Source of the DNA: an uncultured Bacilli bacterium
GTDB taxonomy: Bacteria; Bacillota_I; Bacilli_A; RF39; UBA660
Reading direction: 5' to 3'
DNA length: 63,612 nucleotides
Assembly: GCA_944358815.1 (NCBI GenBank)
Contig: CALVRX010000022.1
Span: forward strand, 1-63,612
Shown: positions 37,155-62,029 of the stretch, piece by piece
Position numbering within the stretch: position 1 is the stretch's first letter
How the letters are laid out: every line of letters begins with the position of its first letter
Program-made: the position numbers and the translations under genes
The notes under the pieces: model-generated
The model's input: only the letters and a program-made list of their open reading frames with translations
Database searches by the model: none
What the model was told of the DNA's origin: nothing

Positions 37155-37296
37155 TCTTTTTTTAGCAATTTATGTTTTGTACATAATGTTGATTTTATGT
37201 TTTGTCATATATTTAACGACTCTTCACCGTGATAGCATCCGCCGAAATTTCGATCACTATCATCCTCGTCAACCTTTGTTTGGTTCTGGCGCTAGG
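37155..37296 (-). ncRNA. glmS: glmS ribozyme (GlcN6P-dependent self-cleaving riboswitch)
   Basis: The minus strand reads AGCGCCAGAAC...GGTTGACGAGGATGATAGTGATCGAAATTTCGGCGGATGCTATCACGG, matching the conserved core (A|GCGCCAGAAC, GACGAGG, AUCGAAAUUUCGGCGGAUGC). Boundaries are approximate. Confidence 0.9.
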
Positions 37297-37337
37297 ATTA
37301 GATGATGACCTCCTTTTGTTATCTATCCTTTGTTATT

Positions 37338-42194: not shown

Positions 42195-42416
42195 TGAAAT
42201 TTGAAAAGCGAAGATTAAGAAGTAGTAGTAAAAGTAATTATTAATAGAGAGCTAACGGTTGGTGGAAGGTAGCAATAATCTTTTATGAATTCACCTTATG
42301 AGCTATATGTTTAATGACATATCGGTAACGCGTTATAGTTTTTGAGGTAAGCAATTGCTTATAAATTAAGGTGGTACCACGTATTAATCACGTCCTTATT
42401 GGATGTGATTTTTTTT
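42195..42416 (+). promoter_or_regulatory. T-box riboswitch leader, Phe (UUC) specifier, controlling pheST
   Basis: AGAGAG and GGTTGGTGGAA stem I elements, specifier UUC at 42290-42292 followed by A, and the T-box AATTAAGGTGGTACCACG (42364-42381). Terminator AATCACGTCC-ttatt-GGATGTGATT followed by T8. Confidence 0.9.
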
Positions 42417-46128: not shown

Positions 46129-46202
46129 GGGTCTATAGCCAAGTGGTAAGGCGTGGGACTGCAACTCCCTGATCGTTGGTTCAAATCCGACTAGGCCCTC
46201 CA
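46129..46202 (+). tRNA. tRNA-Cys (GCA)
   Basis: Folded by hand: acceptor GGGTCTA/TAGGCCC (one G.U), 3-bp D stem, anticodon loop CTGCAAC, T arm GTTGG-TTCAAAT-CCGAC, discriminator U73, encoded CCA. Confidence 0.9.
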
Positions 46203-58510: not shown

Positions 58511-59583
58511 ATGAAAAAATTAGGTTTTGGATGTATGCGATTTCCAGTAGATGAAAATGGAAATATTAATATAGAAGAACTTAAAAAGATGGTAGATGTG
58601 TTTATTCAAAAAGGTTTTACTTATTTTGATACTAGTTATGTTTATCATAATGGGGAAAGTGAAAAGGCTTTAGGTAAGGTATTAGTAGATAGATATCCTA
58701 GAGACAAGTTTACGATTACGACAAAGTTACCTTCATTTATGGTGAATACGAAAGCGGAAATGCAGAAAATATTTGATGAACAACTTACTCGTTTAGGAAC
58801 GAATTATGTCGATTATTACTGGCTTCACGCCCTTACTGATGAGTTATATGAGAAAATGGGGGAGACGGGGTTTGCTTTTTTAAGAGAGTTAAAGAATAAT
58901 GGAAAGATAAAACATATTGGTTTTTTTTTTCACGATTCTCCAGAAGTTTTAGAGAAGATTTTAAATGCTCACCCAGAAGTAGAGTTTGTTCAGCTACAGC
59001 TTAATTATATTGATTGGACTAGTCATTTTGTGAGGTCTAAAGAATGTTATGATGTTTGTTTAAAACATAATGTTCAAGTGATTGTTATGGAACCAGTTAA
59101 AGGTGGGGGACTTGTAAATCTGTCAGCAAAGGCTGAAGAGATTTTTAAAGAATATGATGGTAAAGCATCTAATGCTTCATGGGCGATTAGATGGTGCGCT
59201 TCACTTTCTAATGTTTATATGGTTTTATCAGGCAGTTAAATCAGGTTTTAGATAATACATCATTTATGGAAGATTTTAAACCGATGAATGATGAAGAAAA
59301 AATGCTTGTTAAAAAAGTAGCAGATATTATTAATAGTAAGGTTTATTTTGATGAGAAAAAATTAGAAAATATTAATTTAGATGATAAAGTTAAAGATGCC
59401 GTTAAAGATTATGTTAGACTTTATAATGAACACTATAAAATGGACTGTTATACTAATGGAATGGTTTATTATGCGAATTTGATTAAAAAATATCCTAAAG
59501 CAAGTGAGTGCATTAAGTACTGTGATAAATATCCCGAGATTAAAGATGTTTTAAGTAAGCTAGCTGAGGCTTTTGAAAATTAA
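58511..59583 (+). pseudogene. Aldo/keto reductase (MKKLGFGCMR type) disrupted by a frameshift near 59231-59237
   Basis: ORF 58511-59239 ends ..VLSGS*. A second frame, open from 59212, reads ..QLNQVLDNTSFMEDFKPMNDEE, the expected continuation of this AKR family. Also contains a T10 run at 58921-58930. Confidence 0.65.
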
Positions 59584-59610
59584 ATTGTCATAAATTAATG
59601 ACAATTTTTT
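59582..59610 (+). terminator. Intrinsic terminator
   Basis: AAATTGTCAT-aaatta-ATGACAATTT hairpin followed by TTT. Confidence 0.8.
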
Positions 59611-59682
59611 GCTAGTTTTGTTTATTTTTTTGACTTAAAGTGAGTGTATAGATGATAAAATAGTAATGGAGGATTGATTGAT

Positions 59683-60198
59683 ATGTTGTTTGAAAAAGAT
59701 TATAAAGGTAAAAAAAGTTTAATTATTTATTTTAGTAGAGCAGATGAAAATTATGGAGTTGGCTTTATTAGTAAAGGTAATACGGAAGTTATTGCAGAAG
59801 ATATTAAGGAGTTCACAGGGGCGGATATATTTAAAGTGGAGCCAGCTATACCTTATGCGAGTGATTATAATACTTGCATTAATGAAGCTAGGGAAAGACA
59901 AGTTAGTCATAATGCTCCTATTAAAGAAAAGGTTCCAGATATTTCTAGTTATGAGGTTATTTATATTGGAAGTCCTGTTTACTGTGGTGATATGCCAGAA
60001 GAGTTAGTTACAGCTTTGAAAGATATTAATTTTACTGGTAAGATTATTAGACCTTTTGTTACTCATGAGGGCTCTGGACTTGCAAATATACCAAGTCAGA
60101 TTAAAGCGGTTTGCAAGGGAGCAGAAGTAACTGATGGACTTGCTATTAAAGGATCTTTAGTAAATAGTTCTAAAGATAAAGTAGAGAAATGGATTTAG
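59683..60198 (+). CDS. Flavodoxin family protein
   Basis: KKSLIIYFSRADENYG..GNTEVIAEDI..GSPVY pattern of the Flavodoxin_4-type family. GGAGGA SD. Confidence 0.75.
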   Translation: MLFEKDYKGKKSLIIYFSRADENYGVGFISKGNTEVIAEDIKEFTGADIFKVEPAIPYASDYNTCINEARERQVSHNAPIKEKVPDISSYEVIYIGSPVYCGDMPEELVTALKDINFTGKIIRPFVTHEGSGLANIPSQIKAVCKGAEVTDGLAIKGSLVNSSKDKVEKWI

Positions 60199-60209
60199 TA
60201 TAAAAAAAC

Positions 60210-60240
60210 CAATAAAGATAATTCTTTATTGATTTTTATT
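60210..60240 (+). terminator. Intrinsic terminator after the flavodoxin gene
   Basis: CAATAAAG-ataatt-CTTTATTG hairpin followed by aTTTTTaTT. Confidence 0.7.
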
Positions 60241-60248
60241 ACAAAATA

Positions 60249-60277
60249 TTGCGTTTTATATAACTATTCGTTATATT
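60249..60277 (+). promoter_or_regulatory. Candidate promoter of toxin-like mRNA 1
   Basis: TTGCGT, 17 nt, TATATT. The predicted TSS (about 60285) lies just before the conserved AAGGAATGTTCAAT 5' box. Confidence 0.55.
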
Positions 60278-60343
60278 TATATATAAGGAATGTTCAATAG
60301 TTGGACGCTACCAATTCGATACAAAGAATTGGAGGTGATGCTT

Positions 60344-60421
60344 ATGACTCAAAGAGAAAAAGCTCTTTACTTCATAATCTCACTTCTATTTATTATAGTA
60401 TTCATTTTGCTTTTTAAATAG
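60344..60421 (+). CDS. 25-aa hydrophobic peptide, candidate type I toxin (MTQREKALYFIISLLFIIVFILLFK)
   Basis: GGAGG SD 8 nt upstream of the ATG. The peptide has a polar head, a single hydrophobic helix and a terminal Lys. It sits in a duplicated unit with a convergent antisense promoter. Too short for the ORF track. Confidence 0.6.
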   Translation: MTQREKALYFIISLLFIIVFILLFK

Positions 60422-60534
60422 AAAACAGCGTCTAACTCATCATCGATGATTTAGACGCTCCACAAGTTAATCGGTAGCGTTCAACAATCGAGAATTGAAC
60501 GTTCCTTTTTTATTTTATGAGATTTCTCTCATCT
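60418..60534 (-). ncRNA. Candidate cis-antisense RNA 1 (antitoxin-like), about 115 nt, complementary to the 3' UTR and stop codon of ORF 1
   Basis: Bounded by the minus-strand promoter (60541-60569) and a minus-strand terminator (AGCGTCTAA..TTAGACGCT, 60427-60459, then gUUUUcUaUUU). Ends are predicted, not measured. Confidence 0.55.
60478..60511 (+). terminator. Intrinsic terminator of toxin-like mRNA 1
   Basis: CGTTCAA-caatcgagaa-TTGAACG hairpin followed by ttccTTTTTT. Confidence 0.75.
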
Positions 60535-60540
60535 ATATAC

Positions 60541-60569
60541 ATTCTATCATATATTTAACTTTAAGGCAA
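60541..60569 (-). promoter_or_regulatory. Near-consensus promoter of antisense RNA 1
   Basis: On the minus strand: TTGCCT, 17 nt, TAGAAT with a TGa extended -10. Confidence 0.7.
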
Positions 60570-60576
60570 AGATTTT

Positions 60577-60606
60577 ATTACATTTTCTATAACTATTCGT
60601 TATACT
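60577..60606 (+). promoter_or_regulatory. Candidate promoter of toxin-like mRNA 2
   Basis: -10 TATACT in the same conserved block as unit 1. The -35 is weak (ATTACA at 18 nt, or TTACAT at 17 nt). Confidence 0.45.
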
Positions 60607-60671
60607 TATGTATAAGGAATGTTCAATAGTTGGGTGATTGCCGAGCTTCTATTTAGAAGGGAGGCGGTATA

Positions 60672-60755
60672 ATGAGTAAGAAGGATTGTTTAATCTTATC
60701 TTTAATCGTTATTATCTTCTTTCTGTTATTGTTATTATTTATAATTTTAATATAA
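60672..60755 (+). CDS. 27-aa hydrophobic peptide, candidate type I toxin (MSKKDCLILSLIVIIFFLLLLLFIILI)
   Basis: GGGAGG SD 7 nt upstream of the ATG. Same architecture and position as ORF 1 in the second repeat unit. Confidence 0.6.
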   Translation: MSKKDCLILSLIVIIFFLLLLLFIILI

Positions 60756-60865
60756 AAAAAAATTACCTAACTCATCTACAATGATTTAGGTGCACCACAC
60801 AAATTGGTCGCATTCAACATTGGCAATTGAATGTTCCTTTTTATTTTATGAGAAATTTCTCATCT
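60752..60865 (-). ncRNA. Candidate cis-antisense RNA 2 (antitoxin-like), about 115 nt
   Basis: Minus-strand promoter at 60872-60900. Minus-strand terminator ACCTAA..TTAGGT (60765-60791) followed by aaUUUUUUUUU. Complementary to the ORF 2 3' UTR and stop codon. Confidence 0.55.
60811..60846 (+). terminator. Intrinsic terminator of toxin-like mRNA 2
   Basis: CATTCAA-cattggcaa-TTGAATG hairpin followed by ttccTTTTTaTTTT. The stem differs from unit 1 by a compensatory G-C to A-U change. Confidence 0.75.
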
Positions 60866-60871
60866 ATATAC

Positions 60872-60900
60872 ATTTTAACATATTTTTAACTTTAAGACAA
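60872..60900 (-). promoter_or_regulatory. Near-consensus promoter of antisense RNA 2
   Basis: On the minus strand: TTGTCT, 17 nt, TAAAAT with a TGt extended -10. Confidence 0.7.
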
Positions 60901-60922
60901 TTCTTTGTTTTATACTTTGTAA

Positions 60923-61147
60923 CTATTTTTTGAAGAGTTTTTTAGGTTTATTTAGATCTGTTTCTGTAATAACATGTTTATCATCAATTGGTATACCATC
61001 TATTATAGCTCTATAGTCAGGTTTTAACTTTTTCTTAATTTTGCTTTCGATTATTTCAGTAATAACTTCAGGCTCTAATTCAATGAATTTTTCGTATGGT
61101 ATTCCAAATTTTTCTTCTATAGATTGTTTTAATGTTTCTAAAGACAT
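60923..61147 (-). CDS. Hypothetical small protein (74 aa, acidic N-terminus / basic C-terminus)
   Basis: AAGGAAAGAAAG SD-like stretch upstream. No motif recognised. Confidence 0.45.
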   Translation of the reverse strand: MSLETLKQSIEEKFGIPYEKFIELEPEVITEIIESKIKKKLKPDYRAIIDGIPIDDKHVITETDLNKPKKLFKK

Positions 61148-61287
61148 AAACTTTCTTTCCTTTCTTGGTTATTATAACATGGATAACTTGAATTGTGAAT
61201 ATTTTAAAATTAAAATATTAATATTTTATAGGTAATTTGATGGTTAAATGATATAATGAATTTGAAAAGGCAATTTGGAGGTTTTAG

Positions 61288-61476
61288 ATGAAAAAATTAA
61301 AATTTGGTGTATCTTTAGTTGTTTTAGGTAATATTTTATATTTAGCTTATATTTTTTTGGCAGGTGATGGTAGTTCATTTGGAGAGTTTACTTCTGGTTT
61401 ATTACTTGGACTTTCTATTGGCATTAGTTTGGTAGGTATTATTATGCTTATTATTTATGCTTCTAAAGAAAGATAA
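61288..61476 (+). CDS. Small two-TM membrane protein (62 aa)
   Basis: GGAGG SD and two hydrophobic helices. Confidence 0.5.
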   Translation: MKKLKFGVSLVVLGNILYLAYIFLAGDGSSFGEFTSGLLLGLSIGISLVGIIMLIIYASKER

Positions 61477-61492
61477 TTAAAAGGTGGTTAGT

Positions 61493-62029
61493 ATGAGTGA
61501 TATAGAAATTATAAAACTTACTTTTGGAATATTTTTAAGTGTGTTTGGATTAGTACTTATCTTTTTAGCTTTTTTGCTATTTTATAAATATTTAGTGCAG
61601 GAAAAAAGATGTATTTCTAAAGTAAAAGGAATTATTAAAAGGTATAGTATTGCAGAATATGGTGGTGTGCATTTACCTATTGTCTATTATATGGTAGATG
61701 GTAAAGAATATAAGGTTAAAGGCCCAGAATATAAATGGATTATTACTAAAACAAAAAGTAGTCCTACTAGTAAAAATAAAGTAGATTATGAAGTTGATGG
61801 TCAAAGTTTAATTATCAACTGCGAGGTTAATTCTATTGTTTCAGTTTATAAAAATCCGCTTTATGATATGTATCCACTTAATTCAGAGATTGATGTTTTC
61901 TATGATCCAAATAATCCAAAACTAGCTTATGTTTTAAGATACTGTGATAAAAAGTTTTGTTTTTGGCTTATGTTTATTTCTGGTATTGTTATATTAATTA
62001 TAGATATTCTTATTTTAATTTGTTTATAG
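61493..62029 (+). CDS. DUF3592 family membrane protein
   Basis: TM, then a beta-rich core (..VHLPIVYYMVDGKEYKV....IDVFYDPNNPKLAYV), then a TM. This layout is typical of DUF3592. Confidence 0.65.
   Translation: MSDIEIIKLTFGIFLSVFGLVLIFLAFLLFYKYLVQEKRCISKVKGIIKRYSIAEYGGVHLPIVYYMVDGKEYKVKGPEYKWIITKTKSSPTSKNKVDYEVDGQSLIINCEVNSIVSVYKNPLYDMYPLNSEIDVFYDPNNPKLAYVLRYCDKKFCFWLMFISGIVILIIDILILICL

Follow-up and report, generated by a model that had tools for sequence, protein, structure and literature searches.

Organization of the two repeat units

The window analyzed here is a 63,612-nt stretch of DNA (contig CALVRX010000022.1) from an uncultured bacterium of the order RF39. In a part of the window that carries no annotation, we identified two tandem units of ~330 nt, unit 1 (60245-60575) and unit 2 (60574-60905), which share promoter, 5'-end, and 3' blocks and have diverged hydrophobic ORFs between them. 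Direct repeats spaced 329-335 nt apart were found over 63 nt (89% identity), 58 nt (91%), 33 nt (82%), and 23 nt (87%). Pairwise alignment of the units gave a mean column identity of 83% with a diverged ORF segment, and the 23-mer TATAAGGAATGTTCAATAGTTGG is present exactly twice against a chance expectation of 0.01. The tandem pair of ~329-nt repeats described in an earlier note on this DNA was thereby recovered, and all features named in that note were found to within a few bases of where it had placed them. This includes, for each unit, a strong Shine-Dalgarno sequence, a sense sigma-A-like promoter with 17-nt spacing, and an extended -10 promoter on the minus strand. The ORF lengths of 25 and 27 codons given in the note were also correct; its position for the first ORF was off by one base. 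The features are summarized in Table 1.

The ends of the putative transcripts follow from promoter and terminator geometry, the start of the unit 1 mRNA being set by promoter spacing. In unit 1, the hairpin behind the stop codon is followed by UUUUCUAUUU on the minus strand and appears to be the terminator of an antisense RNA; the corresponding hairpin of unit 2 probably has the same role. An upstream in-frame ATG at 60290, which would give a 43-aa ORF, was rejected as a start codon, as it has no Shine-Dalgarno sequence and is not conserved; unit 2 and many of the homologues carry interruptions in the ORF starting there. A generic promoter scan showed no enrichment (13 found vs. 11.8 expected in shuffled sequence), and a simple terminator scan of the region found none, owing to a 10-nt loop in the plus-strand hairpin and an internal mismatch in the minus-strand one. 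Covariation was therefore used as evidence instead, and the significance of the features comes from their conservation in ~75 homologous copies, not from consensus scans.

Table 1. Positions of sequence features and predicted RNAs in the two units (window numbering)
Feature	Position	Strand	Remarks
Unit 1 sense promoter	60249..60277	+	-35 TTGCGT (60249-60254), 17-nt spacer, -10 TATATT (60272-60277)
Unit 1 predicted peptide mRNA	60285..60516	+	~232 nt, from AAGGAAUG to U-run
Unit 1 5' arm of long-distance helix	60285..60312	+	AAGGAAUGUUCAAU-A-GUUGGACGCUACC; 99-100% paired across homologues, covarying
Unit 1 Shine-Dalgarno sequence	60331..60335	+	GGAGG, 8 nt 5' of ATG; predicted mostly paired
Unit 1 ORF	60344..60421	+	25 aa, type A peptide MTQREKALYFIISLLFIIVFILLFK, stop TAG; 16 type A homologues, each 25 aa
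Unit 1 post-stop hairpin	60427..60459	.	Inverted repeat I6; covariation
Unit 1 3' arms of long-distance helix	60473..60516	+	Arms 60473-60485 and 60494-60507
Unit 1 local terminator hairpin and U-run	60473..60516	+	Hairpin 60478-60501
Unit 1 predicted antisense RNA	60415..60534	-	~120 nt; covers last codons and 3' UTR of the mRNA
Unit 1 antisense promoter	60541..60569	-	TTGCCT-17-TGnTAGAAT; -35 at 60569-60564, TG-extended -10 TAGAAT at 60546-60541
Unit 2 sense promoter	60578..60606	+	-35 TTACAT, 17 nt, -10 TATACT
Unit 2 predicted peptide mRNA	60614..60847	+	~234 nt; aligned in A2
Unit 2 5' arm of long-distance helix	60614..60642	+	Type B, non-cognate to own 3' arm
Unit 2 Shine-Dalgarno sequence	60659..60664	+	GGGAGG, 7 nt 5' of ATG
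Unit 2 ORF	60672..60755	+	27 aa, type B peptide MSKKDCLILSLIVIIFFLLLLLFIILI, stop TAA
Unit 2 post-stop hairpin	60765..60791	.	Followed by U9 run on minus strand
Unit 2 3' arms and U-run	60806..60847	+	Arms 60806-60818 and 60826-60839; type A-derived 3' half
Unit 2 predicted antisense RNA	60751..60865	-	~115 nt
Unit 2 antisense promoter	60872..60900	-	TTGTCT-17-TGnTAAAAT; TG-extended -10 TAAAAT

Homologous copies and their hosts

Pattern scans together with nhmmer and covariance model (CM) searches located ~75 further copies, with 77 nhmmer and 74 CM hits in the collected loci; a CM search of related genomes had been proposed in the earlier note. All copies are from metagenome-assembled genomes of uncultured gut Bacilli (CAG-822/Ca. 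Coprosoma, order RF39) and from gut metagenomes. They occur several per genome, frequently in tandem and also dispersed, and close relatives differ in the presence or absence of modules. The site beside the flavodoxin gene is syntenic across several species, and no consistently adjacent partner gene was found among the family loci, which are chromosomal and show no sign of prophage. Remnants that are truncated at the 5' side and keep the antisense half recur at several loci. Neither a blastn search with unit 1 at a distant setting against plasmid and phage collections nor pattern scans of a viral contig collection gave any match. Because an 18-mer of the 5' box served to collect the genome set, the invariance of this box in the set is partly due to ascertainment; an independent scan with the 3' block was used as mitigation. 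At ten of the 27 genome loci (Bacteroidales, Nanopelagicaceae, and others), the 18-mer had matched by chance and no family copy is present. The -35/-10 spacing of the sense promoter is kept in 27 copies. Both promoters are conserved among the copies, including the TG-extended -10 element on the minus strand, and the antisense promoter, which the earlier note expected relatives to keep, is found in essentially all of them.

Conservation of the small peptide ORF

Relatives were likewise expected to keep the small ORF, and an ORF preceded by a Shine-Dalgarno sequence is present in 43 of the 44 distinct full-length copies. Its length is 25 aa in 16 copies, 27 aa in 23, and 28 aa in two, with 29 or 30 aa also seen. 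In total, 32 distinct peptides were obtained, and the ORF is without indels, whereas the leader and UTR around it carry them. Variable sites of the type B ORFs are distributed as 15/6/17 over codon positions 1/2/3, the second being the least variable, and the substitutions among homologues all preserve the hydrophobicity of the peptide. The peptides have a short charged head, MxK[K/R][D/E], followed by ~20 hydrophobic residues that we infer to form a single membrane helix. The charges of types A and B are N-terminal, and there is no charged C-terminal tail. The two peptides of the window belong to recurring subtypes, A (unit 1) and B (unit 2), and across the family three peptide subtypes are carried on one RNA chassis. 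[quoted passage not shown] None of 10 peptide and extended-ORF variants was found by exact look-up in a collection of 15 billion proteins, no gene is called in the module gap in any of 13 contigs of the same species, and a literature string search for the peptide motifs found nothing.

Predicted structure of the sense and antisense RNAs

The unit 1 mRNA region was aligned with 22 homologues (alignment A2). RNAfold gave -80.7 kcal/mol (z = -9.7) for the unit 1 mRNA and -63.1 kcal/mol (z = -5.6) for that of unit 2. [quoted passage not shown] Its cells are 98.3% paired, as compared with at most 48% when the partners are slid, with a covariation score of 0.225 against at most 0.096, and cognate 5'/3' end pairs have a mean energy of -34.3 kcal/mol vs. 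-28.3 kcal/mol for non-cognate pairs. In the divergent members L040 and L062, the sequence of helix 2 is completely different and the pairing is kept. The helix excludes the Shine-Dalgarno sequence, for which the predicted mean unpaired probability is 0.15; its predicted partner lies either upstream (CCUCU/CCUUC) or within the ORF (CCUCC/CUUCC). In silico, the helix and the occlusion of the Shine-Dalgarno sequence correspond to the translationally inert primary transcript of type I systems. The local plus-strand terminator hairpin is weak (87% paired).

The consensus of the predicted antisense RNA consists of three hairpins over ~115 nt (98.2% paired, with nine pairs changed on both sides), and its covariation score is 0.30 against at most 0.08. 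The antisense RNAs of units 1 and 2 scored 120.1 and 106.6 bits with CM R1 and had RNAfold z-scores of -4.6 and -3.6, respectively. Read on the minus strand, the middle hairpin is paired to 98.1%, with 78 G·U cells; on the plus strand, the value is only 80.2%. By sequence, the antisense RNA is complementary to the peptide mRNA, as type I systems require, with a predicted overlap of ~80-100 nt; against the non-overlapped part of the mRNA, the best duplex was no better than those of shuffled sequences (mean z about -1). Taken together, the comparative analysis shows that the coding sequence and both promoters are conserved, that each of the two RNAs has covarying pairs, and that pairing is specific to the strand.

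Two readings do without a functional peptide. [quoted passage not shown] We consider this very unlikely, as the ORF stays fixed at 25 or 27 codons despite the flanking indels, the Shine-Dalgarno sequence and start codon are conserved, hydrophobicity and the second codon position are constrained, three peptide subtypes share the chassis, and significant antisense complementarity is confined to the overlap. The units are also repeated, AT-rich, and intergenic, as would be expected of a selfish, MITE-like non-coding repeat or of a chance tandem duplication without function. Covariation and coding conservation effectively refute this explanation: conservation across species is patterned, compensatory changes occur in four helices, the ORF is maintained, and the flavodoxin-adjacent position is syntenic, while terminal inverted repeats and target-site duplications were not noted.

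Natural variants within the species

Contigs from other strains of the window's species were found through look-ups of flavodoxin, ORF74, and ORF62; the VanZ-like protein had no record. Unit 2 is a recombinant in which a B-type 5' half is joined to an A-type 3' half. Of 43 foreign 3' ends, 42 form a stronger duplex with its 5' end than its own 3' end, for which the duplex energy is -24.8 kcal/mol. The lock formed by the long-distance helix, mismatched in helix 2, is probably weakened in this unit. A cognate type B arm has the sequence GGCAACATCCAAC. In one strain, represented by a contig of sample ERZ24773498 at 3.6x coverage, there are five substitutions in 4.9 kb, all of them within ORF2 (ATG>ATA, L11>stop, K3N, I8S, and I27R). 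The Shine-Dalgarno sequence of unit 2 is mutated in two other strains, by an inserted A in L070 and a G>A change in L077. The antisense -10 element is also altered in some strains with an intact ORF2. Unit 1 is invariant across the strains except for one -10 change, to TATACT, the family consensus. Unit 2 is undergoing inactivation in some strains, and the occurrence of start-codon, nonsense, and Shine-Dalgarno mutations in separate strains suggests that the peptide is harmful.

These variants bear on the possibility that the ORF encodes a non-toxic small membrane protein, for example one with a role in regulation or stress, whose expression is adjusted by an antisense RNA in cis and which is unrelated to toxin-antitoxin systems. 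Conservation of the ORF, the RNAs, and the promoters does not prove toxicity, and the charged C-terminal tail that is common among type I toxins (PMC6563280) is missing. We nevertheless regard this explanation as unlikely, as modules occur in several copies, both in tandem and dispersed, and vary in presence between close relatives, peptide subtypes are swapped by recombination, antisense-half remnants recur, the start, nonsense, and Shine-Dalgarno mutations cluster in one copy, and no neighboring partner gene is constant. Type I toxin-antitoxin loci typically show such traits, whereas small membrane proteins with a housekeeping role do not.

Proposed function of the modules

Each of the two units probably belongs to a family of type I toxin-antitoxin-like modules that has not been described before, a reading to which we assign a probability of roughly 0.78. 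The earlier note had proposed the same from the sequence, and all of its predictions that could be checked computationally held. The layout and hallmarks of the modules fit published type I systems (PMC8594479, PMC6733600, PMC6563280). In such a module, a moderate sigma-A promoter would give a ~230-nt mRNA for a peptide of 25-27 aa. This mRNA is predicted to be translationally inert because its first ~28 nt would pair with its last ~35 nt, closing the molecule by the long-distance helix, and because the Shine-Dalgarno sequence would also be paired, either with the CU-rich element just upstream or with the one inside the ORF. From the opposite strand, the near-consensus TG-extended promoter would produce a ~115-nt antisense RNA made up of a GNRA-capped 5' hairpin, a middle hairpin whose sequence is the complement of the mRNA terminator and 3' arm, and a 3' hairpin with a U-run, the terminator that overlaps the toxin stop codon. 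Over the last ~90 nt of the mRNA, the complementarity of the antisense RNA is perfect, and a long duplex could form there, leading to cleavage and decay of the mRNA as in bsrG/SR4 and txpA/RatA. The 3' segment involved is the one with which the mRNA's own 5' end is predicted to pair, and the two would compete for it.

A wider model is put forward tentatively and may well prove wrong. The mRNA would have at its 5' end a loop-deleted copy of the middle hairpin of the antitoxin, and its 3' segment would be contested in cis by this 5' end and in trans by the antisense RNA, the cis helix locking and storing the mRNA and the trans duplex destroying it. Recombinants with a mismatched lock, such as unit 2, would produce toxin by leakage and be eliminated through mutations that destroy the toxin. 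The modules would also constitute the first toxin family under RNA control to be reported from the uncultured RF39 gut lineage with its reduced genomes. The natural recombinant and the suppressor-like alleles make the lock hypothesis directly testable.

RF39/CAG-822 is an uncultured and abundant gut lineage with genomes of 1.3-1.5 Mb, and to our knowledge almost nothing is known of its RNA regulation. The family adds a well-supported, multi-copy, putatively RNA-regulated module to this lineage. With ~20 hydrophobic residues and an N-terminal charged head, its peptides are among the shortest candidate toxins of Gram-positive bacteria.

Comparison with known type I systems

Searches of positions 59000-62000 against Rfam (4227 families), at the gathering threshold and at E up to 10, gave no family match; hits to SNORD50 (17 bits) and to tsr24 of S. 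aureus (13.7 bits vs. a gathering score of 50) were treated as chance. Six peptides searched against Pfam and NCBIfam at E up to 10 matched no toxin family and no Fst-type profile. Sarcoglycan, DUF7248, and HokA matches were sub-threshold noise, HokA being the best toxin model with 11.3 bits against a cutoff of 89. As no named RNA or protein family was matched, the suggestion of the earlier note that the family is undescribed stands. A divergent member of a named family (Fst/RNAII, TxpA/RatA, BsrG/SR4, SprA1, or the Clostridioides difficile toxins) would share the convergent, 3'-overlapping layout common to those families (PMC8594479), but we find this highly improbable given these search results, the absence of an Fst-type proline or charged tail and of the additional 5' complementarity of the par/SprA1 type, and the length of the window peptides (25-27 aa), which is below the 28-60 aa reviewed for Gram-positive toxins (PMC6563280).

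The modules resemble the CD2517.1/RCd8-type systems of C. difficile in having unannotated small hydrophobic ORFs in a gut Firmicute and overlapping convergent antisense RNAs (PMC6563280). The C. difficile toxins differ in being 34-53 aa long with lysine-rich C-termini and mostly linked to prophages or CRISPR arrays, and show no similarity to the peptides described here. Fst/RNAII (par, pAD1) and SprA1/SprA1as are likewise Gram-positive and convergent, with peptides of ~30 aa and an antisense RNA that runs through the terminator region of the toxin mRNA. In these two systems, the decisive contact is made at the 5' region of the toxin and not within the overlap (PMC8594479), whereas in the present modules no significant complementarity was found beyond the overlap, including at the initiation region, and the peptides have neither an Fst-type motif nor a match to the family profile.

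In bsrG/SR4, txpA/RatA, bsrE/SR5, and yonT/SR6 of Bacillus subtilis, as in the modules described here, the genes are convergent (PMC8594479), the mRNA of a small hydrophobic peptide is overlapped at its 3' end by an antisense RNA of ~100-200 nt, and the toxin mRNA is structured with an occluded Shine-Dalgarno sequence (PMC6563280; predicted in the present case). The long perfect duplex is also shared and would imply decay of the RNase III type. The convergent 3' overlap of TxpA/RatA and BsrG/SR4 is thus found, and neither toxin nor antitoxin shows homology to the models of these families. The present peptides have no sequence or profile similarity to the B. subtilis toxins and are shorter (25-30 vs. 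28-60 aa), with types A and B charged at the N-terminus instead of carrying a charged C-terminal tail. The loci are located in RF39 chromosomes with no sign of prophage, and the mRNA is closed by the 5'-3' long-distance helix. We know of no description of such a closing helix for the four B. subtilis systems.

A 5'-3' interaction that closes the full-length mRNA is found in hok/Sok of enterobacteria and aapA/IsoA of Helicobacter, as are CU-rich anti-Shine-Dalgarno elements upstream of the Shine-Dalgarno sequence and in the ORF (PMC6733600), and these systems are also multi-copy and chromosomal. In the modules described here, the interaction was seen in silico and in covariation. The hok and aapA systems are Gram-negative, and their antisense RNAs pair with the 5' leader or the start of the ORF, whereas the antisense RNA predicted here covers the 3' UTR and hence the very strand that forms the 3' side of the lock. 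In addition, the present helix excludes the Shine-Dalgarno sequence, and there is no 5'-targeting antisense RNA, no peptide of Hok or AapA type, and no homology, as reflected in the HokA score given above. The best reading of the design is that it combines the Gram-positive 3'-overlap layout with a hok/AapA-like 5'-3' lock, and the family would thus unite two regulatory ideas so far seen in different phyla, the 3'-overlap antisense RNA of Bacillus and the 5'-3' lock of hok and aapA.

Organization of the tandem units

The gap at 60245-60905 holds two units arranged head-to-tail, each with a small ORF on the plus strand and a predicted antisense RNA on the minus strand. The tandem repeats of ~329 nt described in the earlier note were recovered as direct-repeat blocks spaced 329-335 nt apart, and pairwise alignment of the units gave a mean column identity of 83% with a diverged central ORF segment. 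A 23-mer of the 5' block, one of the two conserved segments flanking the ORF, occurs exactly twice against 0.01 expected occurrences. The ORFs of 25 and 27 codons with strong SD sequences, and the minus-strand extended -10 promoter in each unit, were likewise present as claimed, the promoter sites being conserved across homologues. A generic promoter scan gave 13 promoter-like sites against 11.8 expected, which is not significant alone, and a generic terminator scan called zero terminators.

The genes flanking the units encode flavodoxin, aldo/keto reductases, and DUF3592 and VanZ proteins. An ordinary chromosomal glmS ribozyme, T-box leader and tRNA confirm that the window is part of a Bacillota chromosome. 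In the window, and likewise in several strains, one aldo/keto reductase is split into two ORFs (242 and 105 aa), whereas it is a single 359-aa gene in strain L070, which argues that the window allele is probably interrupted, as a pseudogene or by a programmed break.

Features of the window and of homologous loci (window positions unless a locus is named)
Feature	Position	Strand	Remarks
ORF1	60344-60421	+	25 aa, MTQREKALYFIISLLFIIVFILLFK
ORF2	60672-60755	+	27 aa, MSKKDCLILSLIVIIFFLLLLLFIILI
SD of ORF1			GGAGG, 8 nt 5' of ATG
SD of ORF2			GGGAGG, 7 nt 5' of ATG
Unit 1 antisense promoter	60569-60541	-	TG-extended
Unit 2 antisense promoter	60900-60872	-	TG-extended
mRNA 5' end, unit 1	60256-60376	+	antisense-model match, 18.7 bits, E = 0.42
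Type B half of unit 2	about 60564-60764		gap positions 370-590 in the comparison with L072 (reverse strand)
74-aa ORF	60923-61147	-	without Pfam match
glmS ribozyme	37157-37304	-
T-box leader	42202-42400	+
tRNA	46129-46199	+
Aldo/keto reductase	58511-59583		split
Aldo/keto reductase, L070	L070 4067-5146		single gene
L064 substitutions	60674, 60680, 60694, 60703, 60751		window-equivalent
L070 unit 2 SD	60662		A inserted
L077 unit 2 SD	60661		G>A
5'-truncated units	L019 5743-5963; L046 7848-8068, 10051-10273; L016 3335-3530; L008 793-958; others
RelB/YafQ pair	L008 132-745
Metagenomic copy	L063 186-547

Distribution of the family and conservation of the small ORF

Scanning 185,579 species genomes for an 18-mer of the 5' block yielded 27 loci, among which true copies (nhmmer) were limited to uncultured Bacilli MAGs, Candidatus Coprosoma and Firmicutes bacterium CAG:822, in genomes of 1.3-1.5 Mb. 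In GTDB, Ca. Coprosoma goes by the name CAG-822 and belongs to the order RF39 (PMC8035907). A second, independent pattern, taken from the 3' block, retrieved 36 metagenome loci, most of them from human gut. In total, nhmmer gave 77 matches, and 44 distinct full-length transcripts were predicted. The family is multi-copy and often tandem, with three consecutive copies in two loci (L004 and L024), and no member was found in the plasmid, phage and viral collections searched. One metagenomic copy (L063), with the SD changed to GGGAAG, a broken stem in the antisense 5' hairpin (AUAAAG) and an altered 3' arm, appears to be decaying.

The earlier note had made its reading depend on conservation of the small ORF in relatives, and an SD-preceded ORF is kept in all full-length copies except one. 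The ORFs encode type A peptides of 25 aa (16 copies, e.g. MTKRDNYFFCIILLLFILVFTLLFK), type B peptides of 27 aa (23 copies, e.g. MNKKDFLILSLIIIIFFLLSLLLITLI), peptides of 28 aa (2 copies) and type C peptides of 29-30 aa with KK at the end, giving 32 distinct peptides. Indels are present in the leader and 3' UTR and never within the ORF, codon position 2 is least variable (15/6/17 at positions 1/2/3 in type B), and the substitutions preserve hydrophobicity. On sequence grounds, we consider the small ORF to be a gene. The gap has no called gene in 13/13 same-species contigs, and none of 10 tested peptide variants is present in a collection of 15 billion proteins.

The predicted antisense RNA

Essentially all copies keep the minus-strand promoter (TTGTCA-like, 17 nt, TGnTAAAAT), from which an antisense RNA of 106-128 nt is predicted. 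A three-hairpin fold is common to 39 distinct antisense sequences; 98.2% of the consensus cells are paired, nine pairs carry changes in both partners, and the covariation score of 0.30 drops to ≤0.08 with partners slid. Read on the minus strand, the 5' hairpin carries a GAAA cap; a U-run, which overlaps the ORF stop codon, comes after the 3' hairpin on that strand only. The most telling result is a comparison of strands: in the middle hairpin, 98.1% of cells pair on the minus strand, 78 of them as G·U, and only 80.2% on the plus strand, where the G·U cells become C·A, which argues that the minus-strand RNA itself is under selection. A covariance-model search of related genomes, as proposed earlier, found 74 copies of the antisense RNA among the collected loci, with the structure conserved, no copy in the window beyond those of units 1 and 2, and zero matches in chance-hit loci of other phyla. 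The antisense RNA is predicted to overlap ~80-100 nt at the 3' end of the mRNA, and no significant further complementarity was observed outside the overlap.

The predicted sense RNA and its 5'-3' helix

The putative sense start was placed at AAGGAAUG from the conserved -35 and -10 boxes. RNAfold paired the first ~28 nt of the predicted sense RNA with its last ~35 nt, at -80.7 kcal/mol (z = -9.7) for the unit 1 RNA and -63.1 kcal/mol (z = -5.6) for that of unit 2. This long-distance helix is in the MFE structure of 23/23 aligned homologues, contains covarying pairs and has 98.3% of its cells paired on the alignment, against ≤48% with partners slid; the local terminator hairpin is less conserved (87% paired). 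In units retrieved via the 3' block alone, changes in the 5' strand are compensated (e.g. GGAACAUUUAAU, GGGAUAUUUAAC and CA/UG swaps), and pairing is retained in L040, where helix 2, a part of the long-distance helix, has an unrelated sequence. Duplexes of 5' and 3' ends average -34.3 kcal/mol when cognate and -28.3 kcal/mol when non-cognate. The SD is predicted to be mostly paired (mean unpaired probability 0.15) with a CU-rich element located either immediately 5' of the SD or within the ORF. Both the 5'-3' helix and the paired SD have been described as hallmarks of the mRNAs of type I toxins (PMC6733600). The mRNA 5' end in the window gave a weak match to the antisense covariance model, and its 5' arm resembles a copy of the middle hairpin from which the loop has been deleted.

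Natural variation of unit 2

Across 13 same-species contigs (99.4-100% identity to the window), unit 1 is invariant apart from one -10 change. L017, the species nearest to that of the window (86-91% identity), has one type A unit after the flavodoxin gene and lacks unit 2 and the 74-aa ORF, with 61 nt (L017 2069-2131) in place of 669 nt (window 60576-61244). Outside the window's species, the 74-aa ORF was found in none of the loci compared. In other species, the flavodoxin site holds a type B unit. In strain L072, an intact type A unit with matching 5' and 3' arms occupies the unit 2 site; it and window unit 2 have identical 3' halves. On this comparison, window unit 2 is a recombinant: its 5' half, comprising promoter, 5' arm, leader and ORF, comes from type B and its 3' half from type A, which explains its weak, mismatched helix 2 (-24.8 kcal/mol; 42 of 43 foreign 3' ends pair better).

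On this recombinant background, three strains have disruptive changes in unit 2. In L064 (= L069, L079; 3.6x coverage), five substitutions in 4.9 kb (ATG>ATA, L11>TAA, K3N, I8S and I27R) all fall within the 84-nt ORF2, with zero in the surrounding ~4.8 kb, and in L070 and L077 the SD is altered. With L064 read at 3.6x, these lesions may reflect selection against a poorly locked toxin, which would be expected to leave such a pattern. Units truncated at the 5' end recur in several loci: the sense promoter, 5' arm and SD are gone, the antisense promoter and RNA are kept, and the units thus look like 'orphan antitoxin' remnants. The L008 remnant comes immediately after a RelB/YafQ type II toxin-antitoxin pair (Pfam).

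Proposed mechanism and comparison with known systems

Each unit is most likely a type I toxin-antitoxin module, at a probability of about 0.78, based on the observed conservation of coding, promoters and structure. We infer its transcription, toxicity, neutralisation and decay route as follows. The membrane-peptide mRNA would be stored with both ends closed and the SD occluded, and the antisense RNA, from a stronger promoter, would pair with the 3' UTR over ~90 bp, leading to mRNA decay. The antisense RNA and the mRNA's own 5' end would thus compete for one 3' segment.

The units had no family match in Rfam, a comparison that the earlier note had called for, the peptides had none in Pfam or NCBIfam, and no description of the family was found in the searchable literature, in agreement with the earlier suggestion of an undescribed family. 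The peptides are shorter than the reviewed Gram-positive toxins of 28-60 aa, and types A and B differ from these in being without a charged C-terminal tail (PMC6563280). In par/SprA1 there is a 5' interaction, whereas none was found here. Membership in a named family was rejected on the database searches, par/SprA1-type pairing, peptide length and the type A/B tail, and we rate the modules as a new family within a known kind of system. Their layout is that of the Gram-positive TxpA/RatA, BsrG/SR4 and BsrE/SR5 systems (PMC8594479), while the 5'-3' lock and dual anti-SD elements are like those of hok and aapA (PMC6733600).
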